Assembly: GCA_029880285.1 (NCBI GenBank)
Contig: JAOUOS010000030.1
Location: 1 to 41,383 of the forward strand
Direction: 5' to 3'
Origin: Spirochaetia bacterium
GTDB lineage: Bacteria; Spirochaetota; Leptospiria; Turneriellales; JAOUOS01
Length of the DNA stretch: 41,383 bases
Positions 2,972-30,946 of the stretch are shown here, in pieces. The translations under genes were made by a program, and so were the position numbers. Within the stretch, counting starts at the first letter, position 1. Each line of letters opens with the position of its first letter. The notes below the pieces were generated by a model. It saw only the letters and a program-made list of their open reading frames with translations, did no database searches and was not told the origin of the DNA.

Positions 2972-4408
2972 TTAATTTAAACTGCTGTAAGAAGAATAAG
3001 GTAAAATAATTTCTAAAGATTCTTTTTTATGGTCACTTGTTAGTTTAAGTGAGCCCTTAAAAACAAAAATGATTTCTTTTATTTCGTTTAAGTATAATTC
3101 CATTTCTTTTTTTTGAAGAATATGATTAATACTGGAATCTTTATTCATAAAGTTTATTAAAACCTGATTTCTTTCTGTAATAATAGAAATTTTTAATATT
3201 TTATTATTTAATAAATGAAATATGTTATTAAGAGCAATTTTAAGAATTTTAATAATTTCAGAAGCTAGAATATTTTCAATAAACAGCAAACTTGTGTTAA
3301 AAAATAAATCACATCTGTTCTTTGTATTTTTTTCATAATCAGCGGCTATATTTTCAATAAATGTTTTTAGACTAAAATTTTCAAGCTGGTTTAATTCCAG
3401 ATTTTTTGTTATTTTTCGAATGCTTTGAATGGCAGAATTTAATAAGTTTTTTGATTCAATTATATTTTCTGGATTTAAAGTATTTTCTACTTTTTGAATT
3501 TCATCGTTTAGTTTTTCAATATCAAAGTTAATTAAAGACATAATTTGATTTAAATCATCCTGAATATTAATGGCTATTTTTTTTCTTTCCTGCTGGCGCG
3601 CGGTTTGATAATTTCTTGCCATTTGTTTAAGTTCTCTTCTTCTTTGTATAAGTTCTTTTTGAGCGTTGTGACGGCGGCTAATATTTTGAATTAGTGAAGC
3701 GATTCCAATAATGTTATTTTTCTCATCAAATAAGGGCACATTGTACCATTCACATTGAATGAAGTTTTTGCTTTTTGTAATGTTTTTATCTGTGCTTCTT
3801 AATTCACATTTTTCTTTCAGTATTTTATTAAAAAATTTATTTATTAAACTTTCGTTTATATTTGAAATTTTTGACAATGCTTTTTGGTTTATCATTTCTT
3901 CTTGGGTATATTCAAAAATATTTTCAGCCGCTTTGTTCCACCGTGTTACCTCTAAATTCAAGTTCCACTCGATAATAGCCATGGGAATATTATCAACATG
4001 AAATTGAAGTTTTTGAGCATGTTCAATTAGTGCTTTTATCCCTTTTTTTTCTCTTGTTATATCGCGGCATATTTCAATTGAGCCCGCTAATTCATTATTG
4101 TTTATAATAAAGGGATAGCCTTTAATCTCCCATATATTATTATCAGATGTTATAATTTCGCCCTGTTTTTGAGAAAGATTCTCTTTTGCCTCAATAGCAG
4201 GGCAGAATAAGCAAAAGCTGTCTCTTTGAAAAAGTATCTTATAACACTTTTGACCTATTGCCGAATCACGGTTTACTTTAAAAGAATTTTGAGCGCCTTT
4301 GTTCATCCAAATAATATTCATCTTTAAATCATGGCAAATTATAGGATCAGAAATACTGTCAAGTATATGAAAATAATCTATTTTAATGTCATTTAAATGA
4401 TTATGCAT
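2972..4408 (-). CDS. PAS-domain sensor protein with a degenerate HisKA_3/HATPase-like C-terminus (probable pseudo-histidine kinase)
   Basis: The ORF is 478 aa. The N-terminal ~250 aa have two PAS-like segments ('ICHDLKMNIIWMNKGAQ', 'IPMAIIEWNLNLEVTRWNKAAENIFEYTQEEM'). The C-terminal ~220 aa follow the NarX/DesK-type (HisKA_3) layout, but the kinase motifs are altered. 'ERKKIAINIQDDLNQ' sits where 'ERxRIARELHDxxGQ' is expected, so the phospho-acceptor His is Gln. 'KIALNNIFHLL' resembles an N-box. No DxGxG (G1) or GxGL (G2) box is present. The C-terminal 'GSLKLTSDHKKESLEIILP' matches the end of an HATPase domain. Confidence 0.6.
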   Translation of the reverse strand: MHNHLNDIKIDYFHILDSISDPIICHDLKMNIIWMNKGAQNSFKVNRDSAIGQKCYKILFQRDSFCLFCPAIEAKENLSQKQGEIITSDNNIWEIKGYPFIINNNELAGSIEICRDITREKKGIKALIEHAQKLQFHVDNIPMAIIEWNLNLEVTRWNKAAENIFEYTQEEMINQKALSKISNINESLINKFFNKILKEKCELRSTDKNITKSKNFIQCEWYNVPLFDEKNNIIGIASLIQNISRRHNAQKELIQRRRELKQMARNYQTARQQERKKIAINIQDDLNQIMSLINFDIEKLNDEIQKVENTLNPENIIESKNLLNSAIQSIRKITKNLELNQLENFSLKTFIENIAADYEKNTKNRCDLFFNTSLLFIENILASEIIKILKIALNNIFHLLNNKILKISIITERNQVLINFMNKDSSINHILQKKEMELYLNEIKEIIFVFKGSLKLTSDHKKESLEIILPYSSYSSLN

Positions 4409-4507
4409 TGAATAGGTTTGCTTTTATTTATTTAATATAAAATGCTATTAATTTTTTAATTATATAGTTTTTTAATAAAAGCGTCAAATAATATTCAAGA
4501 TAACACT

Positions 4508-5542
4508 TTATTTCGTTTTTTTAATAATATCCGTTGTAGAATATCCTTTTCGAAAAGGCAGTATAACAACTTCTCCCTTATATTTTTTTATAACAGAATA
4601 TTCAGGCAGATCTTCTTTTTTATAGTCACCGCCTTTTACATGTATGTCAGGTTTTATTTTTTTTATTATCTCGATAGGCGTGTCTTCTGAAAATGAGGTA
4701 ATAACACTCGTAAAGGGAAGGGCAGAAAGCGATAAAAGCCTGTCTTTTAAGGTATTCACCGGTCTTGATTTGCCTTTCAGCCTTTTTACGCTATCATCAG
4801 AGTTTGCGGCGACAACCAGAGCATCCCCCAGTTTTGAGGCCTGCCATAAATACTGAAGATGACCTGAATGTAAAATGTCAAAACATCCGTTTGTAAAAAC
4901 AATCTTTTTCTTTTGTTTTCTTAAATTTTGAATTGTATTTTGAAATAGTTTTTCTTTATAGGAAGAATGAATTTTTAAATTTATATCTTTTTCAAACTCT
5001 ATTTGTAAAATAAATTGAGCGGCTTCTTTAAGATCTGTAGCTATGTATTTCAAATTTTTAGGTTCTTTTAATTTTTTTTCTGCGTCTGAGGGATATACTA
5101 AAATACCATCGATATTAAACGGTTCAGCTGCTTTTATATCCCTTAATTTATCACCAATTATGTAACTTCTCGAAAGACTAAATTTTAATTCTTTTTGAGC
5201 CTGTTTAATAAGCCCGGGTTTTGGCTTGCGGCATTCACAGTTATCTTCATCTGTATGCGGACAAAAATAAATCTTTTTTATTGTAATATTTTCTTTTTTT
5301 AAGAGTTCTAATAGTCTATTGTTAACAGCTTTAAGTTGTTTTAAAGTGATAAGTTTTCTGCTAATTCCAGACTGATTGGTTATTATAGCAAATTGAAAAT
5401 CGAATTTTTTTAGTAAATTTAATGCTTCTGTTACACCCGGTTTTAGTTTTAAATCTTTTGGATTATTTATATAACCCGGATCAAAATTTAATGTGTTGTC
5501 CCTATCTAATAGTACAAATCTAATTTTTTCATTAGCTGGCAT
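4508..5542 (-). CDS. bifunctional D-glycero-D-manno-heptose 1,7-bisphosphate phosphatase (GmhB-like HAD) / heptose-1-phosphate adenylyltransferase (HldE domain II / RfaE-II-like)
   Basis: The N-terminal half has 'VLLDRDNTLN' (HAD DxD), 'ITNQSGISR' and the Zn motif 'CPHxxxxxCxCRKP' typical of GmhB. The C-terminal ~135 aa, 'IVFTNGCFDILHSGHLQYL...SRPVNTLKDR...VKGGDY...STTDIIKK', align closely with the HldE adenylyltransferase domain (HxGH cytidylyltransferase fold). It overlaps the upstream kinase ORF by 11 nt. Confidence 0.8.
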   Translation of the reverse strand: MPANEKIRFVLLDRDNTLNFDPGYINNPKDLKLKPGVTEALNLLKKFDFQFAIITNQSGISRKLITLKQLKAVNNRLLELLKKENITIKKIYFCPHTDEDNCECRKPKPGLIKQAQKELKFSLSRSYIIGDKLRDIKAAEPFNIDGILVYPSDAEKKLKEPKNLKYIATDLKEAAQFILQIEFEKDINLKIHSSYKEKLFQNTIQNLRKQKKKIVFTNGCFDILHSGHLQYLWQASKLGDALVVAANSDDSVKRLKGKSRPVNTLKDRLLSLSALPFTSVITSFSEDTPIEIIKKIKPDIHVKGGDYKKEDLPEYSVIKKYKGEVVILPFRKGYSTTDIIKKTK

Positions 5543-6353
5543 AATATTTAGCGGAATTTAAAGCTGTATGATAGTAATTTATTCCAAATAAATTTGCATG
5601 TACCAAAAGGGGATATATCTGGTATAGCTTTTTTATATCTTTGTATATTTCGCAAATAGAATGAATTTCTTGGTAAGCCGAATAAAATGCAGAATCAAAT
5701 GCGCCAAATAATTCAGTAAAGGCTAATTCTATTAAAGCGTCACCATAATAAACAGCGGGATCTATAAATATAGGACCTTTATCGCTAAAATATAAGTTTC
5801 CGCTCCATAGATCACCATGCAGTAAAGAAGGTTTTGGTTTATGAGTTAATAAAACCGGCAGTTTTTCAAATAATTTAGACCAAATATTTAGTTCGTTATT
5901 GGTTAATTTATGGGATAAATTCCATAAATTTAGCTGATACTGCAGTCTATGTTTTTGATAAAATAGAATCCAGTCTTTTTCAAAATTATTAATTTGATTA
6001 AGAGAGCCAATATAGTTATTTTGAAAAAAACCAAAGTTTTCACTCGTTTTTTGGTGAAGTTTCGCTAAAAGAGTACCAGCTTCTTTATAACATGGTTTAC
6101 CAGCATTAAAATATTCTAAAAGTATTGCATCTTCATTAAATGATATGACTTTAGGCACGGGAAGATTATTTTCACGTAAATGGTTTAAACCAAAACATTC
6201 ATTTTCAAACATTTTAGTAAACCCTCCGTTGTTATTCTTTAAAAGAAATTCACCATTTAGACAGATAAGATGATAAACTTCATTTATATCACCTCCCGCT
6301 AAACGATTTTTTTTATAAATTTGACCAGTAAATTTTTCAAACGGATTTTTCAT
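5532..6353 (-). CDS. fructosamine/ketosamine-3-kinase family protein (protein-kinase-like fold)
   Basis: The ORF is 273 aa. It has the FN3K-family catalytic-loop motif 'LLHGDLWSGNLYF', 'IFIDPAVYYGD', and an N-terminal nucleotide-binding region. It overlaps the neighbouring ORF at both ends (17 nt upstream, 11 nt downstream), which suggests an operon. Confidence 0.7.
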   Translation of the reverse strand: MKNPFEKFTGQIYKKNRLAGGDINEVYHLICLNGEFLLKNNNGGFTKMFENECFGLNHLRENNLPVPKVISFNEDAILLEYFNAGKPCYKEAGTLLAKLHQKTSENFGFFQNNYIGSLNQINNFEKDWILFYQKHRLQYQLNLWNLSHKLTNNELNIWSKLFEKLPVLLTHKPKPSLLHGDLWSGNLYFSDKGPIFIDPAVYYGDALIELAFTELFGAFDSAFYSAYQEIHSICEIYKDIKKLYQIYPLLVHANLFGINYYHTALNSAKYYAS

Positions 6354-7261: not shown

Positions 7262-7386
7262 CACTATTTAATTTTTTTAATAAGAAAAGTTTATTAACTT
7301 TACTTAATTTAGTAATACCCCCAAAAATTAATTATATACCGCTTTTTTTAATTTTTTTTTTAAATTACTAAAAAAATTAAATAGTG
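7262..7386. repeat. 18-bp near-perfect inverted repeat pair (cactatttaattttttta ... taaaaaaattaaatagtg) enclosing ~90 bp
   Basis: Read directly from the sequence. The left arm lies ~15 bp upstream of the ssb start codon. The right arm lies in the ssb/mazG divergent intergenic region. Confidence 0.5.
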
Positions 7387-7637
7387 AAAATGATTGAAAA
7401 CATTAAATATGTATAATGAGATACTTGAAATAGAAAAAGCTCAACTAATGTTAAAAAAAAATTATAGCAATTTAAATTATTGATAAACAGGATTTTTTAT
7501 GATTATTTTTTTCTAAATATCTTGTTATCTTGTTAAAAAATTTATCTTAAATGCCTGTCTCAATCTGGATTCACGTAAGATTGAATATTGATAATATAAA
7601 AATCTTGCCGCATTGTCTTTTAAATAAATGGTAACTG

Positions 7638-8525
7638 ATGAAAAAACCACCGTCTTTAGATAAACCAATAGAAAGTCTTAAAAAAATTGCCAGAGATTTA
7701 CGCGATAAAACACATGGTTGTCCCTGGGATATGAATCAGACCCATGATAGTGTAGTAAAAAATTTAATAGAAGAGACATATGAAGTTGTAGATGCGATTG
7801 AAAAATTAAATGAGAAAGACATAAATACTTATAATGATCTGAAAGAAGAGCTAGGTGACTTGTTTTTTCAAATAGTTTTTCATGCCCAGCTTGCTGAAGA
7901 AAGGGGAATGTTTAATCTTGAAGATACCGCCCTTTATGTTTCAGAAAAATTAATATTTAGGCATCCTCATGTATATGGCGAAAACGTGCAAGTAGAAGGT
8001 GAAAAGGATGTTCTGAAAAACTGGGAAAAGTTAAAGCGTGAAGAAAAAAATAAAAAAAATGAAGAATTTATACATATGCTTTCTGGAATTCCCGTTCACT
8101 TGCCCGCGCTATTAAAGTCTTATCGCATAGGCCAAAAAGTAAGCCGTGTAAATTTTGACTGGCCCTCTTCAAAAGAAGGTACAAAACTGCTTAAAGAAAA
8201 AGTAATTGAAGAGCTAAATGAGTTTCTTGTTGAAATTGACGAAAATCATGAAAAATACAATCCTGAAAATCTAATTACGGCAGATAAAATAAAAGAAAAA
8301 GAAAGAGTAGAAGAAGAATTAGGAGATTTATTATTTGCAATTTCACAGCTTGCGAGACGTTATTATATTGATCCCGAAGAGGCTTTGCAAAAAGCAAATA
8401 AAAAAGTAACCTCGCGGTTCGAAAAAATGGAAACTATTTTTCAGGATAAGTTAAATAAAGGCATACATCCCAGCATTGAAGAATGGGATGAGCTTTGGAA
8501 AAAAGTTAAGAAAGAAGAGAAGTAA
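7638..8525 (+). CDS. mazG: nucleoside triphosphate pyrophosphohydrolase MazG (tandem MazG domains)
   Basis: The ORF is 295 aa. It has 'HGCPWDMNQTHDSVVKNLIEETYEVVDAIE' and 'ELGDLFFQIVFHAQLAEE', with a second 'EEELGDLLFAISQLARRY' repeat. Confidence 0.85.
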   Translation: MKKPPSLDKPIESLKKIARDLRDKTHGCPWDMNQTHDSVVKNLIEETYEVVDAIEKLNEKDINTYNDLKEELGDLFFQIVFHAQLAEERGMFNLEDTALYVSEKLIFRHPHVYGENVQVEGEKDVLKNWEKLKREEKNKKNEEFIHMLSGIPVHLPALLKSYRIGQKVSRVNFDWPSSKEGTKLLKEKVIEELNEFLVEIDENHEKYNPENLITADKIKEKERVEEELGDLLFAISQLARRYYIDPEEALQKANKKVTSRFEKMETIFQDKLNKGIHPSIEEWDELWKKVKKEEK

Positions 8526-8606
8526 GAATTTTTAATTTTACTTTAAAATTCGCCGATATTAATTTATATTGACATATTGAAATAAAACCTGTTTCTGACA
8601 AAAATT

Positions 8607-9674
8607 ATGCAGAAAAAACATCATTTAACACGAAATGTAATTCAAAAACTGCGAAAAAAGGGACACGAGAAACTGACATTCATGATTGTTCCGCACAGTG
8701 AAAAACATATTATTCATCTTCAATTGAGTAAGTTTACAGTAGCGTTTATAATTTTTATTATATTAGCTGTATTTTCAGCATCTTTATTATCTATGAAACT
8801 TCAAAATAACATAAGAGGTGAAGTTAATCAATTATACGCTAATTCGAAAGTATATTTAAATGAAAAAAACCAGTATCTTTCAAAATTAGATGAGCTAATG
8901 GAAAATCAATATGAAATAAAAGAAAAACTGTATAATTATTTTGAAAAAGCAGAACTTGAAAAAACTGAACTAAAGGTTTTTTTTTCAGATGATGTTATCT
9001 ATAGACAGGCAGAAGAGCAAATATTAAAAGAAAGTAAAGACTTAATAGAAAGAGTAATTTTAATTGAGCAAAAACATAAAAACAATGAAACTAATTTACA
9101 AATAACGAGTATTGAAGAGGACCTTTTGTCTGGCTGGGAAAATAATCAAATAAATCGTAATTTTTCTTACAATGAAGATGTTTTAGCTTATAGAAAACTA
9201 AGCATCGAAATGAAACAAACCATACAAGCTTTAAAAACAATTCAAAATTTTTTAGATGAAAGAATAAACGTGCAAAATGGTCTTCCCTATTATTGGCCAG
9301 TCGCTGGGGGTCGATTTACTTCTTTTTATGGGCCCAGAATTTCTCCCTTTGGATATACAAACGAGTTTCATCTTGGTGTTGATTTAGCTGACGCCGTAGG
9401 TACACCAATTTTTGCCTCTGCAAATGGAGTTGTTATTAAGAGAGGTTATGGCGGCGGATATGGATTAAGGCTGGTTTTACAACATGAATATGGTTATCAG
9501 ACTTTATATGCACATCTAAACAAGGCAAAAGTAAAAGTAGGTGATAAAGTAAAAAAAGGACAAGTTATAGGATATATGGGAAAAACCGGTCAGGTTACAG
9601 GTCCTCATTTGCATTATGAAGTAAAAATGCAAAATAAACAGATAAATCCGTTGCCGTACTTATCTAATTTGTAA
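8607..9674 (+). CDS. M23 family metallopeptidase (LytM-like) with N-terminal TM helix and coiled coil
   Basis: The ORF is 355 aa. It has 'HLGVDLAD' (HxxxD) and 'GPHLHYEV' (HxH), both intact. There is one N-terminal TM helix and a long coiled-coil segment. Confidence 0.85.
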   Translation: MQKKHHLTRNVIQKLRKKGHEKLTFMIVPHSEKHIIHLQLSKFTVAFIIFIILAVFSASLLSMKLQNNIRGEVNQLYANSKVYLNEKNQYLSKLDELMENQYEIKEKLYNYFEKAELEKTELKVFFSDDVIYRQAEEQILKESKDLIERVILIEQKHKNNETNLQITSIEEDLLSGWENNQINRNFSYNEDVLAYRKLSIEMKQTIQALKTIQNFLDERINVQNGLPYYWPVAGGRFTSFYGPRISPFGYTNEFHLGVDLADAVGTPIFASANGVVIKRGYGGGYGLRLVLQHEYGYQTLYAHLNKAKVKVGDKVKKGQVIGYMGKTGQVTGPHLHYEVKMQNKQINPLPYLSNL

Positions 9675-14764: not shown

Positions 14765-15199
14765 ATGATAGATTCAAATTTAAATTGGAACAAGGCTGTA
14801 TATTTTCTTGAAAAGGGACTAGATACGGCAGAGCTTAGAGGCAAGGTTGTTTCTGATAATATAGCTAATGTAGATACGCCGCATTTTAAAAGAAGCGAGG
14901 TAGCTTTTGAGGCTCAGTTGAGGCGTGCTCTTGATTCAGAAAAATATGTTAAAGAAAATGAAGTTCCCGCTAAGGTAACAGACTCAAGGCACTTTTCATT
15001 TTATAAGTCATTAGACTATAAAGATGTTTCTTCAAAGATAAATGTTGATTATTTATCTACCATGAGAAATGATGGTAATAACATAGATGTTGAACATGAA
15101 ATGAATCTCGCCTTAAAAAATCAAATGACTTATGAAATGATGACGGGGCAGATAAACAATCATTTTAGAATGTTAAGTATGGTTATGAGAACAGCATAA
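14765..15199 (+). CDS. flgB: flagellar basal-body rod protein FlgB
   Basis: It has 'RGKVVSDNIANVDTPHFKR' and the rod-protein C-terminus 'NQMTYEMMTGQINNHFRML'. Confidence 0.9.
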   Translation: MIDSNLNWNKAVYFLEKGLDTAELRGKVVSDNIANVDTPHFKRSEVAFEAQLRRALDSEKYVKENEVPAKVTDSRHFSFYKSLDYKDVSSKINVDYLSTMRNDGNNIDVEHEMNLALKNQMTYEMMTGQINNHFRMLSMVMRTA

Positions 15200-15215
15200 A
15201 AGAAGGTAAATAAAT

Positions 15216-15671
15216 ATGTTTAACACGATAAATATTGCTTCAACGGGTTTAAGCGCTCAGCGTCTTAAGATGGATGTTATTTCAAACAATATTGCAAACG
15301 CAGCAACCACAAGAACAACTGAGGGTGACGGACCGTACAAAAGAAGAAGAGTAGTTTTACAGCCTATTAATTTAAGAGCTAAATGGAATTCTCCGGTTTA
15401 TCCTTTTGGCATAAGGCCGGGTGAAGGCAAAGGGGTAAGGGTAGTAAAGGTCGAAAGAGATGACACAACGCCCGTTCGATTGGTATATGATCCCGGTCAT
15501 CCCGACGCCATAAAAATTGGACCTAAAAAGGGATATGTTGAATATCCAAATATCAATCCGGTTACAGAAATGGTCGACATGATTTCGGCCAGCCGTTCGT
15601 ATGAAGCTAACGCTCAGATGATAAACGGATTTAAAAGTATGTTTAGGGCCGCCATGCAGATAGGAAGATAA
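15216..15671 (+). CDS. flgC: flagellar basal-body rod protein FlgC
   Basis: It has 'INIASTGLSAQRLKMDVISNNIANAATT' and 'VEYPNINPVTEMVDMISASRSYEANAQ'. Confidence 0.9.
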   Translation: MFNTINIASTGLSAQRLKMDVISNNIANAATTRTTEGDGPYKRRRVVLQPINLRAKWNSPVYPFGIRPGEGKGVRVVKVERDDTTPVRLVYDPGHPDAIKIGPKKGYVEYPNINPVTEMVDMISASRSYEANAQMINGFKSMFRAAMQIGR

Positions 15672-15724
15672 AAGTATATAAAAATTAATTGACAGGATAT
15701 TGATTATATAGTAGGAGGAATAAT

Positions 15725-16066
15725 ATGGGTATAAGTAGCCAAATATTACCATTAGAGATGGCAAAAGGAGACATAATTCCTTTGAGTGTGTCTCAAAAAA
15801 ATCATTTTAACGAAATAAGGCCTAAAGAAGTTTCAGAATCACCGGCAGAAAATTTCGCGAGTCTTTTGTTTAAGACACTTCAAAAAGTAAACGATCAACA
15901 AGTAGATTCAGAGAAACTATCTCAGCAGTTAGTGTCTGATCCGGGTTCTGTTAGTCTGCATTCTGTATTGATTGCTGCAGAAAAAGCAAGGATGTCGCTA
16001 ACGTATACTAAAACACTGGCAGACTTAGCTGTAAAAACGTATAGAGAATTAATTAATTTGAGATAA
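15725..16066 (+). CDS. fliE: flagellar hook-basal body protein FliE
   Basis: The ORF is 113 aa. Its C-terminus 'LHSVLIAAEKARMSLTYTKTLADLAVKTYRELINL' is FliE-like. Its position between flgC and fliF fits. Confidence 0.8.
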   Translation: MGISSQILPLEMAKGDIIPLSVSQKNHFNEIRPKEVSESPAENFASLLFKTLQKVNDQQVDSEKLSQQLVSDPGSVSLHSVLIAAEKARMSLTYTKTLADLAVKTYRELINLR

Positions 16067-16071
16067 TGTTA

Positions 16072-16098
16072 AAAAAATATAAAAAATATAAAAAATAT
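16072..16098. repeat. tandem repeat (AAAAAATAT)x3 in the fliE-fliF spacer
   Basis: Read directly from the sequence. Confidence 0.6.
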
Positions 16099-16141
16099 AT
16101 TCATAGGGAACTTGGGGAAATTTTTATAAAAAGAGGCCCCC

Positions 16142-17824
16142 ATGCCAGATTTCAAAAATTTATTTGAAAGTATTAAAGAAACATTTAATAAGTTAGAGAC
16201 AACGCAAAAAATAATTGCTGGTGCCGTTTTAGGCACTGTTGTTGTGGCTTTGGTGTTAGTGGCGACTGTTTCATCAAAAGAAAGCAGGGTTGCCTTGTTT
16301 GAAGGCATCAGTACAAAAGAATTCGCAGAAGTAACCGCGAAACTTGAAGAATTGAACTATTCGTTTACAACTTCAGGTACAGAGGGAGTGTTTGTTTCAG
16401 CTGATAAACGTGATGAAATCATGATGAAGCTGGCGCAGGAAGGCATGATTCCCAAAGGTGTTGCCGGCTGGGAGCTTTTTGACATAGATAAGTGGTCAGA
16501 AACCCAGTTTGAAAAAGATATAAAAAAACAAAGAGCCCTAATGGGCGCTATCTCAAAAACATTATCTACTTTAAAATCTGTAAGTGAAGCGACAGTTAAT
16601 ATTGCTTTTCCCGAAGAAGCGTTGTTTGAAGAAAGATTAGAACCCGCAAGCGCTGCTGTTTTACTGAAATACACTCCGGGGGTAGATAAACTCACAAGAA
16701 GAGAAATAGAAGGGATTGTTACTTTAGTGAGCCGTTCTGTTCCGGGATTAAAAAAAGAAAATGTGTCTATCGCTGGCCCAGATGGTGAAATATTGAATGA
16801 TTATGACAATGAAATAGACAAAGAAAAGTGGGAGCTAAAAGCAATTTCAGAGAGACTGAAAATACAAGAAAAAGAAAGGGTTAAGCTATTAACTGATATA
16901 AAAAATTCATTAAATTCTTTTTATGGTAATGATAGAGCTGATATTGTAAGGCTTGAGATAAAAATGCGATGGGATAAAGAAGAAATTGAAAAAACAGAAG
17001 TTGAACCTGTTGTAATGATACCAGATGATCCGAAAACTCCCTATTCTGAACTTCAGGTCAAAGACTCTCTTGAAGTTTCTTCAAAAGTAACATCAGAAAA
17101 GTTTGAAGGTAATGGATTTACTCCAGAGGGTCCGGCCGGAACAGAGCCAAATATCCCTCCCGGTTATAAAGATAAAGATTATCAAAAAGCAAGATACGAA
17201 AAAACAGAAAATATAAAAAATAATGAATTTAATAAAACAAAAAGAAAAATTGATAAACAACCATGGGAAGTAGAGAAAGTAAATTTAGCGGTTATACTTG
17301 ACGGCAGGTGGGAAAATGCAGGTGAAAAGGAAGATGAATCTGGATATAAAAGAAAATATGTATCTGTGAGTGATGATGAGCTAAGAAATGTTCAAGATTC
17401 TCTAAAAAAAGCAATTGGGTTTGATTTGTCTAGAGGCGATCAAATTTCTGTAAAACATATTCAAAAAGATCGTTCGAAAGAGCATGAAAAAGAAGATGCG
17501 GCTCTTAGAAAAAGTAAGATGATAAGAAGACTTCTTTTGGTAGGCTTAATTTCATTTTTAGTAATATTTTTAGCGTTTGCTGTTTATCACGGCATAAAGC
17601 GTGAGATGGAAAAACGACGACGATTAAGAGAAGAGGAACTAGCCGCGCAGCAGCAAATGATGCGAGAAGCCGCGTTACGAGCTATTGAAGAAGAAGGTGT
17701 AGAGGTCGAAATGTCTCTTGAAGAAAGAGCAAGAAAAGAAATGCTTGAAAATGCGATTAATTTGGCCAAAGAAAGACCTGAAGACGTGGCCCAACTATTA
17801 AGAACATGGCTGGCAGAAGAATAA
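16142..17824 (+). CDS. fliF: flagellar M-ring protein FliF
   Basis: The ORF is 560 aa. It has N- and C-terminal TM helices, FliF ring-building motifs, and a charged C-terminal tail that would bind FliG. A GAGG RBS is present. Confidence 0.9.
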   Translation: MPDFKNLFESIKETFNKLETTQKIIAGAVLGTVVVALVLVATVSSKESRVALFEGISTKEFAEVTAKLEELNYSFTTSGTEGVFVSADKRDEIMMKLAQEGMIPKGVAGWELFDIDKWSETQFEKDIKKQRALMGAISKTLSTLKSVSEATVNIAFPEEALFEERLEPASAAVLLKYTPGVDKLTRREIEGIVTLVSRSVPGLKKENVSIAGPDGEILNDYDNEIDKEKWELKAISERLKIQEKERVKLLTDIKNSLNSFYGNDRADIVRLEIKMRWDKEEIEKTEVEPVVMIPDDPKTPYSELQVKDSLEVSSKVTSEKFEGNGFTPEGPAGTEPNIPPGYKDKDYQKARYEKTENIKNNEFNKTKRKIDKQPWEVEKVNLAVILDGRWENAGEKEDESGYKRKYVSVSDDELRNVQDSLKKAIGFDLSRGDQISVKHIQKDRSKEHEKEDAALRKSKMIRRLLLVGLISFLVIFLAFAVYHGIKREMEKRRRLREEELAAQQQMMREAALRAIEEEGVEVEMSLEERARKEMLENAINLAKERPEDVAQLLRTWLAEE

Positions 17825-17931
17825 ACTTTGACATGAAAAAGAGTATAATATATAATTATATTAGGCTGAATGATAATGATAGAAAAAAAAGATAAAAAAT
17901 TTAATATTATATTAAAAAAATGGAGTAATAT

Positions 17932-18945
17932 ATGGTAGGTAAACAATCAGATATGAGCGGCAAACAAAAGGCCGCTATATTTTTATTGGCTGTTGGAGCT
18001 GATGTATCATCGGAAGTTATGAAAAAATTAGCTGAAGCTGAAGTTGATACATTGACATATGAGATTGCTCGTTTAGAGAAAGTTACTCCTGATGATAAAG
18101 AACGAGTGCTTCAAGAATTTCAAGAGCTGATGATGGCCCAGGAATTCATTACAAAAGGTGGTATTGATTCTGCGCGTGGAATTCTTGAAAAAGCTTTGGG
18201 AACGCAAAAAGCTATTGATATTATTAACAGACTAACAAGCTCTCTTCAGGTGAGACCTTTTGATTTTGTCAGAAGGCAGGATCCCAGTCATTTATTAAAC
18301 TTCATACAAAATGAGCATCCACAAACCATAGCGCTTATAATTTCATATTTAGATCCACAAAAATCTTCTTTTATTATATCAAGTTTACCGCATCAGATTC
18401 AAGCTGATGTGGCTAGAAGAATTGCAAAAATGGATAGGACATCTCCTGAAGTTCTTCGAGAAGTAGAAAGAGTATTAGAAAGAAAGTTATCTACGTTATC
18501 TAATGAAGATTATGCTTCTGCGGGTGGTATTGATGCTGTTGTAGATATATTAAATAATGTAGATAGAGGAACAGAAAAAAGTATTATAGAAGCTCTTGAA
18601 GAGGAAGATCCAGAATTAGCTGAAGAAATAAAGAAAAAAATGTTTGTATTTGAAGATATAGTACTTCTTGATGATAAAGCTATTCAAAAAACTCTTCGTG
18701 AACTTGATAATCAAGATTTAGCTAAGGCCTTAAAAGCGGTAGATACTGAAGTTCAAGAGAAAATTTTTAGAAATATGTCTAAAAGAGCCGCGGCGTTATT
18801 AAGAGAAGATATGGAATTTATGGGACCGATACGATTAAAAGATGTTGAAGAAGCGCAACAGAAAATTGTAAATATTATACGAAAACTGGAAGAAGAAGGC
18901 GAGATTGTAGTAGCAAGAGCCGGTGAAGATGAGCTTGTTGTGTAA
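17932..18945 (+). CDS. fliG: flagellar motor switch protein FliG
   Basis: The ORF is 337 aa. It has 'GKQKAAIFLLAVGADVSSEVMKKL' and the C-terminal torque helix 'MSKRAAALLREDMEFMGPIRLKDVEEAQQKIVNIIRKLEEEGEI'. Confidence 0.9.
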   Translation: MVGKQSDMSGKQKAAIFLLAVGADVSSEVMKKLAEAEVDTLTYEIARLEKVTPDDKERVLQEFQELMMAQEFITKGGIDSARGILEKALGTQKAIDIINRLTSSLQVRPFDFVRRQDPSHLLNFIQNEHPQTIALIISYLDPQKSSFIISSLPHQIQADVARRIAKMDRTSPEVLREVERVLERKLSTLSNEDYASAGGIDAVVDILNNVDRGTEKSIIEALEEEDPELAEEIKKKMFVFEDIVLLDDKAIQKTLRELDNQDLAKALKAVDTEVQEKIFRNMSKRAAALLREDMEFMGPIRLKDVEEAQQKIVNIIRKLEEEGEIVVARAGEDELVV

Positions 18946-18962
18946 TTAAAAGGGAAATTTAT

Positions 18963-19886
18963 ATGGCAAAAATATTATTTAAATCAAAAGAAGCAGATAT
19001 ACAAAAAGAACCAATTATAATTGATCTTCCTGACAGATATAAAAAACACCAGCAGTTTGATGAACTTTCAGAATTTGAGTTAGACTCTGAGGGTAATGTT
19101 ATTGAACAGTATACCGGCCCGTCAATAGAAGAAATAGAGGCTGAACTTGAAAGATATAGGGACGAAACCGAGCAAAATATTAAAGACAGGCAAAAAAACG
19201 CCGAATCTAGGGTTAATGAAATTATTGAAAACGGTAAAGCTGAAGCCTTTAGATTAATTCAAGAAGCAAAAGAGAAAACAAAAAAAGAAGATGAATCTGC
19301 ACGTTCAAGATCAGACCAGATAATAGAAAGAGCTAAACTTGAAGTAGAAAAAATGATTAAAGAAGCAGAAATGCGGGTTTCAGATATTGAACATGAGGCC
19401 TATCAAAAAGGTTACAACGCGGGTAGAGAAATGGGTTACAGGGAAGGTCAGGGAGAAGTAAAAAGGCTAATTGATAGATTAGGTACAATATTAGGTCATG
19501 CCATTGATGTTAGAGAACAGGTGGTTAAAGAGTCAGAAAAACAAATGGTTGAGATGATCTTAATAATTGCACGAAAAGTAATTAAAGATGAAATAATTGA
19601 AAGAAAAGAAGTTGTTATTAATAATATCAGAGAGGCGTTAGCTAAAATAAAAGATCGTGACCGAATTGATATTAGGGTAAATTTTACAGATTTAGAACTA
19701 ACAACGGCGCATAAAGATGAAATAATTAAAATGATGGAATCATTAAGAAAAGTCAATATATATGAAGACTCAAGGGTAGATAGAGGCGGTGTAATTATAG
19801 AAACAGATGTTGGAGCGATTGACGCTAGAATTTCAACTCAGCTTAAAGAAATTGAAGAAGCAATAAGAAACGCTAAGCCATTATGA
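18963..19886 (+). CDS. fliH: flagellar assembly protein FliH
   Basis: The ORF is 307 aa and lies between fliG and fliI. It has an N-terminal charged coiled coil and a C-terminal FliH/YscL-like domain. Its stop overlaps the fliI start (ATGA). Confidence 0.7.
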   Translation: MAKILFKSKEADIQKEPIIIDLPDRYKKHQQFDELSEFELDSEGNVIEQYTGPSIEEIEAELERYRDETEQNIKDRQKNAESRVNEIIENGKAEAFRLIQEAKEKTKKEDESARSRSDQIIERAKLEVEKMIKEAEMRVSDIEHEAYQKGYNAGREMGYREGQGEVKRLIDRLGTILGHAIDVREQVVKESEKQMVEMILIIARKVIKDEIIERKEVVINNIREALAKIKDRDRIDIRVNFTDLELTTAHKDEIIKMMESLRKVNIYEDSRVDRGGVIIETDVGAIDARISTQLKEIEEAIRNAKPL

Positions 19887-21259
19887 TAGCAAAAAAAATT
19901 GTAAAACCTGTTAACTATCTTGAAAAATATCGAAATTTGGTTGAAAAAACCGAGACGATTAGATCGCTGGGAAGTGTTGTAGAGGTTACAGGTAAAATAA
20001 TTTTATCTAAAGGTCCTGAGGTTCAAATTGGAGAATTATGTCACATTGAAAAAATTGAAGACGAAGCATATATTTTATCAGAAGTAGTAGGATTTAGAGA
20101 TGATTTTGTCGTTTTATCGCCATTAGAAAATATAGCGGGAATATATCCGGGAAGCAGAGTTCTATCTACAGGGTCTCCCTTAAAAGCATTTGTTGGTGAT
20201 GAATTAATGGGACGTGTAATAGACGGTCTTGGAAGACCTCTGGATAACAAAGGCAGCCTAATTGCCAGTGAAAAAAGAAGTTTATATAATAATCCTCCCA
20301 ATCCTCTTGAAAGACCATTAATAAGAAAAGATCTGACTACAGGTATAAAATCAATTGATTCATTTTTAACTATGGGCAAAGGACAGCGTATTGGAATATT
20401 TTCTGGTTCTGGCGTGGGTAAAAGTACGCTTATGGGAATGATTGCACGTTATAGCAAGGCCGATATTAACGTAATAGGGTTAATAGGAGAGAGAGGAAGA
20501 GAAGTAAGAGAATTTATAGAAAATGAACTTGGCGAGCAGGGGATGAAAAAATCGGTAATTGTGGTTGCTTCATCTAATGACAGTCCCATGCATAGAATTA
20601 GAGGGGCCTATATGGTTATTACTATAGCTGAGTATTTTAGAGATAAAGGAAAAGATGTTCTTTTAATGATGGATTCTCTAACTCGTTTATCAATGGCACA
20701 AAGAGAAGTGGGTCTTGCTGCGGGAGAGCCTGCTACAACAAAAGGTTATCCGCCTTCTGTATTTAGTATGCTGCCTGAGCTTGTAGAGCGTGCGGGTAAT
20801 GCTAAAACAGGAAGTATAACAGGTATTTATACTGTGCTGGTAGAAGCCGATGACTTAAATGAACCAATTGCAGACGCGGCAAGAGGTATATTAGATGGTC
20901 ATATTGTTTTATCCAGAAAATTAGCGGGCAGGGGGCATTATCCAGCTGTAGAAATAGTAGAGTCTGTAAGCCGAAGTATGCCGTTTGTAACAGACGAAAA
21001 TCATTATAAAGAAGCTGCTAAATTAAGAGAATTATTAGCTGAATACCAGGAAAATGAAGAGATAATTAATCTTGGCGCATACGTAAGAGGGGCAAATTTA
21101 GTGTTAGATAAAGCAATACAGCTGAAATCTGATTTTGATAGTTTTTTAAAGCAGGGCATTAATGAACATTCTACAAAAGAAAATACATTAAATAATTTAA
21201 AGAGAATTTATGAAAAAACCATAACTGTTAAAGAGTCAGGCGCAAAAAGACTTAGATAA
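19883..21259 (+). CDS. fliI: flagellum-specific ATPase FliI
   Basis: It has Walker A 'GSGVGKST', Walker B 'VLLMMDSLTR', and an F1/T3SS ATPase fold. Confidence 0.95.
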   Translation: MIAKKIVKPVNYLEKYRNLVEKTETIRSLGSVVEVTGKIILSKGPEVQIGELCHIEKIEDEAYILSEVVGFRDDFVVLSPLENIAGIYPGSRVLSTGSPLKAFVGDELMGRVIDGLGRPLDNKGSLIASEKRSLYNNPPNPLERPLIRKDLTTGIKSIDSFLTMGKGQRIGIFSGSGVGKSTLMGMIARYSKADINVIGLIGERGREVREFIENELGEQGMKKSVIVVASSNDSPMHRIRGAYMVITIAEYFRDKGKDVLLMMDSLTRLSMAQREVGLAAGEPATTKGYPPSVFSMLPELVERAGNAKTGSITGIYTVLVEADDLNEPIADAARGILDGHIVLSRKLAGRGHYPAVEIVESVSRSMPFVTDENHYKEAAKLRELLAEYQENEEIINLGAYVRGANLVLDKAIQLKSDFDSFLKQGINEHSTKENTLNNLKRIYEKTITVKESGAKRLR

Positions 21260-21264
21260 AGAAA

Positions 21265-21711
21265 ATGAAAAAATTTAAATTTAAGCTGGAACCGTTTTTA
21301 AAACTTAAAAAATTAGAAGAAAAAAATAAAATGGTAGAACTTTCAAAAGTAGCTCAAGAAGCAGAAAACCAGCAGATAGAAATAAATAATTATTATGAAA
21401 AATCAGGAATATTGCTTTCTGAAGAAGCTATAAAAATGCGAGAGGGTATATTTGACTTATCATATCAAATTATAATGCAGAATTATTTTTATAATATGAA
21501 GAAAAGAAAAGAAATCGCAGAAAGAAAAATGTTAGAAATTGAAATGAGATTAAAAAAGAAACAAGATGAAATGATTATTGCAAGAAAAAATCGCAGAGTA
21601 ATAGAAATAATTAAAGAAAAAAAGTGGGAAAATTACTGTTATGAAACGGGTCGAGAAGAGATACAATTGTTGGATGAACAATATAATAGAAAGAAAGTAA
21701 GACTTTCATAA
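21265..21711 (+). CDS. fliJ: flagellar export chaperone FliJ
   Basis: The ORF is 148 aa and all coiled coil. It starts 'MKKFKFKLEPFLKLKKLEE' and lies immediately after fliI. Confidence 0.6.
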   Translation: MKKFKFKLEPFLKLKKLEEKNKMVELSKVAQEAENQQIEINNYYEKSGILLSEEAIKMREGIFDLSYQIIMQNYFYNMKKRKEIAERKMLEIEMRLKKKQDEMIIARKNRRVIEIIKEKKWENYCYETGREEIQLLDEQYNRKKVRLS

Positions 21712-27842: not shown

Positions 27843-29501
27843 CTAAAAAAGAATATTTATACCGCCATAACCTTTTATACCAGATGTATGATAGGGAGGC
27901 ATTAGAATATAATTTTGGTTTAGCAAATTTTCGCCTTTTATAAAAAAATTAACAGTAGGATTAATTTCTTTTGTAATAATTAAATTTAATAATGTGTAAG
28001 GTTTAAGCCATGTTTCTGATGTAGTAAAGGCTTTTCTTTTTCCCATAAAAGTTAATTCTAAACTAAATTCCCATGTTCCCGGTCTGAAACTGGATTTTAA
28101 AAAAGAAGCTAAATTTGGTTTTAAATATAGGTTATCAAGATAATAAAATCCCGTAATACCTGTTGAATAAAAAAGATCAGAGCCTAAATTTTGCTCTAAT
28201 TCTAAAGTACCATAAACTTGGCGCAGTACTTTATCATTAAATAAATAAATGCCGTCTAACTGGTATGAAAACTCAAAAAAATGATAATAATATTCATATC
28301 CTGCTTCAATATTCAATGAAGCATTCTTAGAAACAGGAATTCTGTTTTTAAGAGATACTTTATACATATCTTCAGGATTTTCATAGGAAAATAGAGCGGA
28401 ATAAGGAGTGTTAAGAAAAGAATTATAAAACAAAGGAATTTTTGCCTCTCGCTCAAATAAAAGTTTAGAATGCCATTTTCCCCAAAAACTATCTAATACA
28501 AAATAAGGACCAAATACCGATTTCATATCTGCGGCAAAAAAAGATTTGAATCCGGCGGTTATGTTTATTTCCCAAAGAGTTTTATCTTCGCCTATATAAT
28601 TTCTATAAATAGGAAAAATATCCGATACAAAAATTTTCCCGCTACGATATATTTTTTTAGTGTCGCTATAATGAGAATTTAGCTCACCATACCAAAAATT
28701 ACTTAAAACGCTTAAAGAGTTTCTTCTGCCAAAAATATATTGCCAGGATGCCTGCAATTTGCCTTCAGTATAAGAAGAAGAAGATTTAGGCAGAGTTTTT
28801 TCTTCAAGATCAGAGCTGATATAAACTCCATAGAGAGAAATATTTAATTTTTGTGCCTCACTTGGGCGAAATTGATTTTGAACTTCAATATATCCGCCTC
28901 TTTTGAATTGTTTTGAGTATAAACTCGAATTTTGCAGTCCTCGAATATCGTCAATATAATTGGTTTTTAACATTAATTTATAAGCTGTATTTATATTAAA
29001 ATGGCTAACTAAATTTAAATTATCAATAGAAGTTTCAGAATCGCGGTATATAGTTTTCCCGCGGCCCTCAGAGTCTTTTTTTAATCTACCGTATTCTAAA
29101 AGATAAAGACCAAGGTCGTCTCTTTTCGTAACGTATATATCAATGCCTAAAGTAGAGTATAGTCCATATTCACTTTTTATCTGGGCTCTTTTTTCAATTT
29201 TTTTAACTCCCTGTTTTTCTTTTTTTGTAATTTGAGAAGCGTTTTCAGACCATTCGCTTATTTCAGTTTCTTCGGGATTAATAATTTTTGTGCTATCTTT
29301 AGCGGGTTGAAGAATCTTTTCATCTTCGCCTTCTACCACAATTTCTTCTTTTTCTATAACGGAATCTGAAGATTTTTCAATTTCATCATCAATTTCATCT
29401 TCAATTGTAATATTCTTTTTTTGTGGAAAAATATCGCTAGGTAATAAAAAATTAAAAAATAATAGGATTAAGAAAACATATAATGAATATGAATATTTCA
29501 T
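27843..29501 (-). CDS. putative outer-membrane beta-barrel protein with acidic N-terminal region
   Basis: The ORF is 552 aa. It has a signal peptide, then a ~90-aa Glu/Asp-rich low-complexity stretch, then a long region of alternating hydrophobic residues. It ends in '...GGINILF' with a C-terminal Phe, typical of OMPs. Confidence 0.5.
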   Translation of the reverse strand: MKYSYSLYVFLILLFFNFLLPSDIFPQKKNITIEDEIDDEIEKSSDSVIEKEEIVVEGEDEKILQPAKDSTKIINPEETEISEWSENASQITKKEKQGVKKIEKRAQIKSEYGLYSTLGIDIYVTKRDDLGLYLLEYGRLKKDSEGRGKTIYRDSETSIDNLNLVSHFNINTAYKLMLKTNYIDDIRGLQNSSLYSKQFKRGGYIEVQNQFRPSEAQKLNISLYGVYISSDLEEKTLPKSSSSYTEGKLQASWQYIFGRRNSLSVLSNFWYGELNSHYSDTKKIYRSGKIFVSDIFPIYRNYIGEDKTLWEINITAGFKSFFAADMKSVFGPYFVLDSFWGKWHSKLLFEREAKIPLFYNSFLNTPYSALFSYENPEDMYKVSLKNRIPVSKNASLNIEAGYEYYYHFFEFSYQLDGIYLFNDKVLRQVYGTLELEQNLGSDLFYSTGITGFYYLDNLYLKPNLASFLKSSFRPGTWEFSLELTFMGKRKAFTTSETWLKPYTLLNLIITKEINPTVNFFIKGENLLNQNYILMPPYHTSGIKGYGGINILF

Positions 29502-30013: not shown

Positions 30014-30211
30014 ATCATTTTCCTCACAATTTATTATTTTTCATATAATATTTTTTCGGCTTTTTTTGAAATTTATAAATAATAATTTTATGAATATTAA
30101 AGTAATTATATTTTAAATCATATCTAATCTTAAAAAATATAAAATCTTTAAAATTGAATACGCTTGACAAATAAGTTCTATTTTAGTACATTTTATAAAA
30201 GATATAATAAA

Positions 30212-30946
30212 ATGCTTAAAAATATAATTATAAAACAGGGTCTTTTAAAATCTATATTGTTTTTTACGTTAATTATTGTATTTTTATCAGTTTTAGGTAC
30301 AAGTATAATAACATTAATTTTAACAGGCGTACTACCCGATAAAATAGGTTTTTTTATTTCTACAATCATGCCAGCTATTTTAGTACCATCAGTTGGATTA
30401 TGGCATTTTAAATTAATAATTGAGTTGCATGCGACACAGCAAAAATTATATAAATATTCTTTTATAGATGAATTAACGAATACTTATAATAGACGTTATA
30501 TCTTAGAAATATTACAAAAAGAAATGAGCCGAGCAAAAAGATACAATACGAATCTTTCAATAATGATATTAGATATTGATAATTTCAAGAAAATTAATGA
30601 TAATTATGGGCATCTAGAAGGTGATAAAATGTTAAAGAGATTCGCAGATTCATGTAAAGCGAATATGAGAGATAATGATTATTTTGGAAGATACGGCGGT
30701 GAAGAATTTTTATACATACTAACAAATACTGAAAAAGAAAACGCTGTTTTATTCGCAGAACGACTGCGTGAAATGATAGTAAAGCTTTGTTTAATTTCAG
30801 AAGATAAGAAAATTAGTCTTACAACAAGTATTGGTGTATCAGAATATAAAATAGATACAGATGACTTAGATTCTTTTTTAGATAGAACAGATAAAGCATT
30901 ATATAAAGCAAAAGAAAAAGGAAAAAATTGTGTGTTTGAGTTATAG
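30212..30946 (+). CDS. membrane-anchored diguanylate cyclase (GGDEF, GGEEF active site)
   Basis: It has 'RYGGEEFLYIL' and 'ILDIDNFKKINDNYGHLEGD', with two N-terminal TM helices. The track ORF begins at a TTG (30164) that is itself a TTGACA hexamer. The first ATG, ~30212 ('MLKNIII'), is the more likely start. Confidence 0.85.
   Translation: MLKNIIIKQGLLKSILFFTLIIVFLSVLGTSIITLILTGVLPDKIGFFISTIMPAILVPSVGLWHFKLIIELHATQQKLYKYSFIDELTNTYNRRYILEILQKEMSRAKRYNTNLSIMILDIDNFKKINDNYGHLEGDKMLKRFADSCKANMRDNDYFGRYGGEEFLYILTNTEKENAVLFAERLREMIVKLCLISEDKKISLTTSIGVSEYKIDTDDLDSFLDRTDKALYKAKEKGKNCVFEL

Follow-up and report, generated by a model that had tools for sequence, protein, structure and literature searches.

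Does the gene at positions 2972..4408 (minus strand) of a Spirochaetia contig still encode a histidine kinase and, if not, what could its product be doing in the cell? The stretch of DNA analysed here, called the window below, comprises positions 1 to 41,383 of contig JAOUOS010000030.1 of the metagenome-assembled genome (MAG) GCA_029880285.1. According to the list of open reading frames (ORFs), a single ORF of 478 aa fills exactly these coordinates, and an exact match in the protein collection identifies its product, P0001, as GenBank MDH5718272.1 of a Spirochaetia MAG, annotated 'PAS domain-containing protein'. An initial annotation had described it as a PAS-PAS sensor fused to a HisKA_3/HATPase-like core, and this architecture is borne out by the column alignment, by the PAS profiles and by the fold match to DesK, VraS and DosS. 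Our results make it very probable that P0001 is a kinase-dead HisKA_3 derivative kept by selection, and the chances appear evenly balanced that the full proposal is correct, namely that this kinase-dead HisKA_3-derived sensor acts by receiver docking or by a phosphatase mechanism. The dimerisation and histidine phosphotransfer (DHp) region and the catalytic and ATP-binding (CA) region on which the argument depends are laid out as follows.

2972..4408, minus strand: the whole gene, encoding a soluble PAS-PAS-DHp-CA-like protein of 478 aa (ORF list, exact database match, AlphaFold2 (AF2) model).
3374..3667, minus strand: signalling helix and DHp-like hairpin, aa 248-345 (AF2 secondary structure, weak HisKA_3 Pfam match, DesK alignment).
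3545..3577, minus strand: degenerate H-box 'IAINIQDDLNQ', aa 278-288, with Gln283 for His and with Asp284 and Gln288 (DxxxQ) kept.
2996..3373, minus strand: CA-like domain of predicted Bergerat fold without ATP-binding motifs, aa 346-471 (no HATPase_c match; AF2 confidence about 90; Foldseek).
3209..3253, minus strand: N-box remnant 'IKILKIALNNIFHLL', aa 386-400, with Asn395 kept and with Gln390 changed to Lys, Glu391 to Ile, Arg398 to His and His399 to Leu.
3128..3151, minus strand: G1-box remnant 'FMNKDSSI', aa 420-427, with the adenine-binding Asp changed to Asn422 and the two Gly to Asp424 and Ser426.
3071..3100, minus strand: G2-box remnant 'ELYLNEIKEI', aa 437-446, with the two Gly changed to Tyr439 and Glu442 and the Arg to Ile446.

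As far as alignments can speak, the homology of the C-terminal 220-230 aa to HisKA_3 kinase cores from end to end is beyond doubt. The NarX/DesK layout, recognised earlier in the last 220 aa or so, is followed by the NCBIfam model MctS (aa 258-475 on model positions 234-452 of 457, E=6e-15, far under the 700-bit equivalog cut-off), by the UhpB model, which aligns with aa 241-471, and by phmmer. The exhaustive phmmer search, which covered 1.84 billion cluster representatives (of about 15 billion proteins), returned 6,648 matches at E<=1e-3 when aa 245-478 served as the query. The best ordinary kinases matched across nearly the whole of this query at 1e-19 to 1e-11, and the best of these matches were soluble PAS-PAS-HisKA_3 kinases of near-equal size such as P0008 (486 aa) and P0010 (494 aa). 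The Pfam HisKA_3 model finds aa 274-338 below threshold (13.6-14.9 bits vs the cut-off of 24, E=0.04-0.1); for comparison, the intact relative kinase P0003 scores 43.1 bits and P0007, the pseudo-kinase relative of P0001 introduced below, 16.7 bits. The Pfam HATPase_c model has no match in P0001 even at E<=10. Among the PDB sequences the full-length protein matched a PAS domain only in phmmer, and the C-terminal profile built from P0001 and P0007 reached, at E about 0.7-0.85, DesK and a second sensor kinase, a result that is not significant alone and gives the register.

The catalytic columns were read from a MAFFT alignment in which P0001 aa 245-478 was set against the corresponding parts of 149 real HisKA_3 kinases and of P0007. 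The acceptor-His column, which holds His in 148 of the 149 kinases (99%), is occupied by Gln283 (codon CAG, window 3560-3562). This H-box register is the same in three independent alignments (BLASTP against P0003, MAFFT with the 149 kinases, and the profile alignment to DesK), none of which places a His at the acceptor position, so that the Gln recognised there in the initial annotation stands; nor is there a His anywhere in the DHp region, aa 248-345. The neighbouring columns that P0001 does keep are strongly conserved among the kinases, Asp (Asp284 here) in 98% and Gln (Gln288) in 93% of them. In the N-box the consensus 'QE..N..RH' reads 'KI..N..HL', by which Gln (99%), Glu (99%), Arg (89%) and His (97%) are replaced and the Mg-binding Asn395 is retained. 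The G1 motif 'DnGxG', whose Asp and two Gly are each present in 99% of the kinases, reads 'NKDSS'; the G2 motif 'GlxGmxER' (Gly 99%, Gly 93%, Arg 97%) reads 'YLNEIKEI'; and the Gly-Thr pair of G3 ('GT') is represented by a gap and a Glu. Among the N, G1, G2 and G3 catalytic columns P0001 thus keeps Asn395 and Glu445 only. Every Gly of the G1 and G2 boxes has been replaced, in agreement with the earlier description of these boxes as absent, and the terminal block that was described as kept does retain the Gly that follows G2 (G452) and the terminal Pro (P470). Taken over the whole core, P0001 keeps 12 of the 34 columns that are at least 90% conserved in real kinases, for which the median is 33 and the minimum 25, and the near-universal kinase residues kept in both P0001 and P0007 are four (Gln288, Glu274, Gly452 and Pro470). 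From these replacements we infer that P0001 has lost the residues for productive ATP binding and autophosphorylation; that the core cannot work as a kinase, as first proposed, is supported by the column alignment together with the missing HATPase_c match.

The codon of Gln283 is one base from a His codon and a sequencing error was considered at this position. It is unlikely, since the identical P0001 protein was called on several contigs or assemblies. The CA domain is dead in any event, whichever residue stands at 283.

A second, independent degenerate HisKA_3 protein was met among the top 149 matches. P0144 (389 aa, encoded on a 2.5-kb ENA contig and not in the window) has Asn for the acceptor His ('SQEINEELGQ'), 'VEGMRTIS' for G1 and 25 of the 34 conserved columns, with the Gln at H+5 kept. 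By this comparison, kinase-dead derivatives of HisKA_3 proteins may arise repeatedly.

The loss of motifs has apparently left the fold in place. The full-length AF2 model has a mean predicted local distance difference test score (pLDDT) of 86.6, with helix 1 running unbroken from the end of PAS2 into the DHp (aa 244-306) and helix 2 at aa 313-344. Because multi-PAS proteins dominated the matches of the full-length model, which told little about the kinase core, the C-terminal half (aa 245-478) was modelled separately; the mean pLDDT was 84.3 and the top Foldseek matches in the PDB were DesK chains. The kinase-core fold expected from the initial annotation is confirmed in these models, since Foldseek superimposes the CA-like domain on the CA domains of DosS, VraS and DesK with template modelling (TM) scores of 0.80, 0.79 and 0.78 and a root-mean-square deviation (rmsd) of 2.7-3.2 Å, and the alignment contains almost no indels and no large deletion in this domain relative to real kinases. 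The predicted structure thus describes a CA-like domain in which the Bergerat-type fold has been kept and the catalytic chemistry lost. P0001 is a HisKA_3 protein by descent and fold, but without the acceptor His, the HATPase_c motifs, scores above the profile cut-offs or a paired regulator. A listing among the histidine kinases would be misplaced, and the protein fits the functional class of pseudo-histidine kinases.

The argument that such a protein is maintained by selection depends on its sole relative in the searched collections, P0007 (= P0160, MDH5721362.1), a protein of 477 aa from another Spirochaetia MAG that is 37% identical overall. Word-index searches, for which the full protein and the alignment of both members served as queries, gave P0001, P0007 and PAS-level matches only, and the exhaustive phmmer search brought up no family member beyond P0007. 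When the GTDB species representatives were scanned, the single locus recovered was the P0007 contig in MAG JAOUOT01; other members were absent, and that MAG contained nothing like the P0001 gene. P0007 shares the PAS-PAS layout of P0001, is separated from it by single-residue gaps only, and has an equally degenerate CA-like domain, with 10 of the 34 conserved columns, Asp for the N-box Asn, 'YKGAA' for G1 and 'CVKIVKQI' for G2. Three derived residues are common to the two proteins (N-box Glu to Ile, G2 Arg to Ile, and Arg387 to Lys), which points to a degeneration that began before their lineages split. P0007 retains the acceptor His, so that the loss of this residue does not characterise the family; the presence of the His next to an equally dead CA domain is most likely explained if the CA domain degenerated first and the His became dispensable later.

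The two proteins have not diverged evenly along their length. Their identity is 49% in PAS1, 38% in PAS2, 49% in the DHp and 21% in the CA-like domain; measured in the kinase alignment, it is 46% for the DHp and 19% for the CA. Among 5,269 pairs of real kinases whose DHp identity lies within 5 points of 46%, the CA identity averages 42% (standard deviation 5) and never falls below 27%. The value for P0001 and P0007 is below that of every matched pair, which indicates that constraint on the CA-like domain has been strongly relaxed relative to the DHp. To judge from these identities, evolution of the sensor and the DHp proceeds as in working kinases. We do not regard P0001 as a decaying pseudogene, because both ORFs are intact, single-residue gaps only separate them and a near-consensus promoter lies upstream.

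The two contigs are part of one ENA record, ERZ27296366, and the GenBank accessions of the two proteins differ by about 3,090. Nevertheless, the GC content (29.9% for the P0001 contig vs 34.5% for the P0007 contig), the tetranucleotide correlation (0.78 between the two contigs, 0.93 within the window, between its halves, and 0.14 with an unrelated contig) and the lack of a P0001-like locus in JAOUOT01 suggest, without deciding the matter, that the genes come from two related but different organisms rather than from one genome.

What a protein of this kind may do can be outlined from the parts that have been kept. The ancestor would have been a soluble PAS-PAS-HisKA_3 histidine kinase, the CA domain of which lost its catalytic residues and survives as a folded module. 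Selection would have kept the input side, composed of PAS1, PAS2 and the continuous signalling helix, together with the surface of the DHp four-helix bundle that normally docks the receiver. A Cys triad in PAS1 may hold a metal or cofactor. The signal sensed by the PAS domains would travel down the helix and alter the engagement by the DHp of a NarL/LuxR-type response regulator encoded elsewhere, and this putative partner, phosphorylated by another kinase or by acetyl phosphate, would be dephosphorylated, or at least bound, by means of Asp284 and Gln288 (the DxxxQ motif) and Arg331.

The assignment of these residues follows the DesK alignment (E about 0.7, individually weak), which pairs Gln283 with H188, Asp284 with D189, Gln288 with Q193 and Arg331 with R235. 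When DesK and DesR form their phosphatase complex, the attacking water is positioned by Q193 and DesR is contacted by D189 and R235, while H188 stays buried and has no role (PMC5231405). NarX and other HisKA_3 kinases use DxxxQ as their phosphatase motif, both residues of which have been reported as required in NarX (PMC3510030). BumS, a cytoplasmic PAS sensor without the autokinase residues, acts solely by dephosphorylating its regulator, which receives its phosphoryl group from acetyl phosphate or carbamoyl phosphate (PMC11796366, PMC12469816). Since DxxxQ is kept and the acceptor His takes no part in the phosphatase state of DesK, a sensor phosphatase without kinase activity is at least as likely as an inert scaffold. 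The initial annotation had concluded that P0001 is a scaffold or pseudo-kinase rather than an enzyme; the pseudo-kinase part of this conclusion agrees with the loss of motifs, but the words 'rather than an enzyme' go beyond what can be established for a protein that retains Asp284 and Gln288. In its most specific form our proposal makes P0001 the HisKA_3 counterpart of BumS: a metal- or Fe-S-sensing protein (Cys55/Cys66/Cys69), altogether without kinase activity, that would act only by dephosphorylating, under control of its signal, or by sequestering an orphan NarL-type regulator, this regulator having been charged by another kinase or by acetyl phosphate. P0001 would in that case define a small family of natural HisKA_3 sensor phosphatases in spirochaetes. 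Put so precisely, the proposal is speculative and we consider it doubtful.

The points that weigh against a sensor acting through receiver docking or phosphatase chemistry should be considered together. Its main weaknesses are the missing partner, the change of Asp to Leu in P0007 and the erosion of other DHp landmarks. Domain scans of the window proteins found no REC domain, GerE gene or other kinase gene within the 41 kb, so that the absence of an adjacent response regulator noticed at the outset extends to the whole window, and no response regulator or candidate partner kinase lies near P0007 either. Both pseudo-kinase genes are orphans without a nearby regulator, whereas BumS and P0003 adjoin theirs, P0003 having a REC-GerE regulator immediately downstream. 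DxxxQ, as aligned, is not conserved across the pair: Gln is found in both proteins and Asp in P0001 only, for P0007 keeps the acceptor His and has Leu in place of the adjacent Asp ('NIHLDLVQ'). The Gly at H+4, present in 97% of the kinases, is Asn in P0001, and the X-box 'LRP' (98-99% in kinases) reads 'LEL', by which a landmark of the DHp is lost. The family has two members, so that all arguments from conservation rest on a single pairwise comparison between genes that may be orthologs or paralogs. The fold prediction, too, was made from input alignments that consist mostly of real kinases, which biases the model towards a kinase fold.

The chief rival to this reading holds that P0001 is a non-enzymatic modulator whose DHp forms hetero-oligomers with a real HisKA_3 kinase, to which the PAS signal is passed allosterically, as in RetS-GacS, DivL-CckA and ChrS-HrrS. 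Within the output half, conservation is highest in the DHp, the dimerisation interface; structures of the RetS kinase region are among the fold matches, the orphan position of the gene fits an accessory factor, and the loss of the DxxxQ Asp in P0007 also speaks for a modulator. A laboratory-evolved CA-dead pseudokinase of the HisKA_3 protein ChrS still contributes to signalling and native ChrS and HrrS form heterodimers, although no such interaction with HrrS was observed when the truncated pseudokinase was examined (PMC9491836). However, a modulator requires neither Gln288 in both proteins nor the receiver-contacting Arg331, and neither the window nor the P0007 locus contains a candidate partner kinase; we regard this alternative as unlikely, if the most serious of those considered.

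Alternatively, the PAS-controlled core might work in the manner of NifL or PsmA and bind a partner that does not belong to a two-component system, for example an activator of transcription, a protein of the cytoskeleton or a metabolic enzyme. NifL, which reportedly combines PAS-PAS and a kinase-like core that acts without phosphotransfer, ranks 3 among the full-length fold matches in the form of the NifL-NifA complex, but this match is driven by the shared domain order and the superposition is poor (TM 0.40, rmsd 18 Å). PsmA is a tandem-PAS histidine pseudokinase that has a variable His position and degenerate ATP motifs and binds DivIVA, but unlike P0001 it does not carry the phosphatase motif of its family (PMC12963549). 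The His position varies between P0001 and P0007 too (Gln vs His). As the two loci have no shared synteny and no conserved neighbour suggests such a partner, we consider an adaptor role improbable.

It is more improbable still that P0001 is a relic, in the sense that a gene which once encoded a kinase no longer has a function and is turning into a pseudogene. One would expect of a relic a family as tiny as this one, with two proteins among the approximately 1.8 billion cluster representatives searched, CA-like domains nearly as diverged from each other as from any kinase, and eroded DHp landmarks, as seen in 'LRP' and 'LDdlGL'. Both genes are, however, intact and full length (478 and 477 aa, single-residue gaps only), PAS1 and the DHp are conserved at the level of working kinases, the fold is predicted confidently and a near-consensus promoter precedes the gene. 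A still-active kinase with non-canonical chemistry, employing another acceptor residue or an unusual nucleotide pocket, scarcely deserves consideration: the Mg-binding Asn395 of P0001 and the acceptor His of P0007 would suit it, but neither protein retains the adenine Asp, the four lid Gly, the G2 Arg or the Glu, Arg and His of the N-box, and what has taken their place differs between the two; P0001 has neither a His in aa 248-345 of its DHp nor any HATPase_c signal.

If, then, P0001 is a kinase-less sensor that docks a receiver or promotes its dephosphorylation, the input that would control it enters through the following elements.

4043..4366, minus strand: PAS1, aa 15-122 (Pfam PAS_9 at aa 21-118; PAS domain of PDB 3lyx, E=1.4e-6; 49% identity to P0007).
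4199..4255, minus strand: Cys-triad loop in PAS1, aa 52-70, G-Q-K-C55-Y-x9-C66-x2-C69-P, a candidate metal or cofactor site (recurrence of the motif).
3668..4003, minus strand: PAS2, aa 136-247 (Pfam PAS and PAS_4; 38% identity to P0007).

The two PAS domains, at aa 21-118 and 136-247, are well above the Pfam cut-off (PAS_9, 64.5 bits; PAS, 54.6 bits) and are also found by the NCBIfam model TIGR00229 (57.4 bits); PAS2 is 41% identical to a PAS domain of the kinase P0002. The motif of the Cys loop, G-x-x-C-[YFH]-x9-10-C-x-x-C-P, recurs in 12 of the 159 collected proteins, attached to different output domains: PAS domains with the triad are carried by P0003, P0005, P0006, P0027, P0048, P0087, P0149 and P0156-158, with HisKA_3, HisKA or LuxR-HTH outputs. 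Its three Cys are invariant between P0001 and P0007, and so is a fourth, C114. AF2 confidence falls to 59-66 at the Cys loop (aa 61-80) and is above 90 over the rest of both PAS domains. PAS1 looks like an example of a recurrent PAS subtype that binds a metal or cofactor. The possibility that it is an Fe-S PAS domain of the NreB type was rejected, as C55-x10-C66-x2-C69 differs in order and spacing from CX2CX11C (or CX2CX11CX2C).

Four of the proteins with the triad, P0006 and P0156-P0158 (303 aa each, not in the window), are one-component regulators in which the Cys-triad PAS is fused directly to a GerE/LuxR helix-turn-helix. There the PAS1 subtype of P0001 is wired to a DNA-binding output of the NarL/LuxR type without a phosphorelay.

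The surroundings of the gene add one further feature.

4459..4487, minus strand: sigma-70-like promoter candidate TTGACG-17 nt-TATAAT with 11 of 12 matches, the best-scoring site of a 5-kb scan.

The candidate lies about 50 nt upstream of the P0001 ATG, inside the 99-bp upstream gap; it is a consensus match only, in an AT-rich region where the total of such sites is not above that in shuffled sequences. No obvious Shine-Dalgarno sequence was seen before the ATG when the upstream sequence was read. The gene is located 3 kb from one end of a 266-kb contig, which ends just past ileS. The ileS gene (plus strand, ending at 2968) converges on the PAS gene (minus strand, stop codon 2972-2974), the two stops being 3 bp apart, and no terminator-like hairpin was found between them. 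The other neighbours in the window include a HAD-phosphatase/cytidylyltransferase fusion, a fructosamine kinase, ssb, mazG, an Mla transporter and a flagellar operon. The P0007 gene (locus L005, contig k141_1229059, positions 7378-8811) is followed downstream by rplM-rpsI and preceded upstream by PorV and QueF genes, and the loci of P0001 and P0007 have neither shared synteny nor any conserved neighbour gene.

Several of the neighbours deserve a brief description. The fusion protein encoded at 4508-5542 (minus strand) joins a HAD phosphatase at its N-terminus to a cytidylyltransferase-like domain at its C-terminus and resembles GmhB plus RfaE domain II of the heptose pathway; its gene overlaps by 11 bp the end of the upstream gene of the fructosamine-kinase family on the same strand (5532-6353, minus). 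At 14765-21711 (plus strand) there is a flagellar basal-body and export operon with flgB, flgC, fliE, fliF, fliG, fliH and fliI, followed by a 148-aa ORF that has no Pfam match and is possibly fliJ. The sole other signalling protein in the window is a GGDEF diguanylate cyclase of 260 aa (30164-30946, plus strand), encoded 26 kb from the gene and having 99 N-terminal aa without domain assignment. The proteins encoded at 27843-29501 (minus strand, 552 aa) and 33834-34736 (plus strand, 300 aa) have no significant Pfam match, and nothing was found in the window by tRNA and Rfam scans.

If our reading of P0001 is true, it provides a natural example of a NarX/DesK-type kinase turned into a kinase-dead signalling protein, and the only comparable HisKA_3 example that was found in the literature consulted is the laboratory frameshift in ChrS (PMC9491836). 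BumS and PsmA are recent evidence that sensors which signal without phosphorylating lie behind 'histidine kinase' annotations, and P0001 would be a further case; as genes like the present one are annotated only as 'PAS domain-containing protein', counts of two-component systems will miss or misclassify them. The significance is limited by the size of the family, the two members of which both come from uncultured Spirochaetia, and by the fact that pseudo-histidine kinases are already established as a class. The interest of P0001 lies in its HisKA_3 origin and in the retained phosphatase motif.

The comparison with known systems helps to place the protein. DesK/NarX-type kinases share with P0001 the layout of DHp and CA block by block, significant homology, and DxxxQ with the receiver-contacting Arg; unlike P0001, they possess the acceptor His, intact N, G1, G2 and G3 boxes and profile scores above the cut-offs, and an adjoining NarL-type regulator is usual. 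NifL has the same domain order and a non-kinase role; it is said to keep its nucleotide-binding GHKL domain and to act on NifA, encoded adjacent to it, whereas in P0001 the nucleotide motifs are gone and there is no NifA-like neighbour. In DivL of Caulobacter and in the ChrS pseudokinase the ATPase domain and the acceptor residue are dispensable, and both proteins act via contacts with another kinase or regulator. DivL is of the HisKA type and membrane-anchored, and its acceptor His is replaced by Tyr. A frameshift acquired in the laboratory gave rise to the ChrS pseudokinase, and the authors of that work stated that natural ChrS pseudokinases were not known (PMC9491836). PsmA of Streptomyces, for which the lack of autokinase activity has been demonstrated experimentally, resembles P0001 in the order PAS-PAS-DHp-CA, in the variable acceptor-His position and in the degenerate ATP motifs, but it is HisKA-like, has a mass of about 150 kDa, a long disordered linker, a C-terminal receiver and no phosphatase motif, and acts through its binding to DivIVA (PMC12963549). 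P0001, by contrast, is derived from HisKA_3 proteins, is 478 aa long, has no receiver and keeps DxxxQ. BumS of Campylobacter jejuni is likewise a cytoplasmic PAS-containing kinase-like sensor without the residues needed for autophosphorylation; it has one PAS domain and is encoded with its cognate BumR, whereas P0001 is an orphan with two PAS domains, and the proposed likeness is one of mechanism, in which the phosphatase activity of P0001 is presumed. The pseudo-histidine kinases are a functional definition rather than a single homologous family, and in this class, which has been established experimentally with DivL, PsmA and RocA and to which NifL and BumS are related, P0001 is a new, small spirochaetal member.

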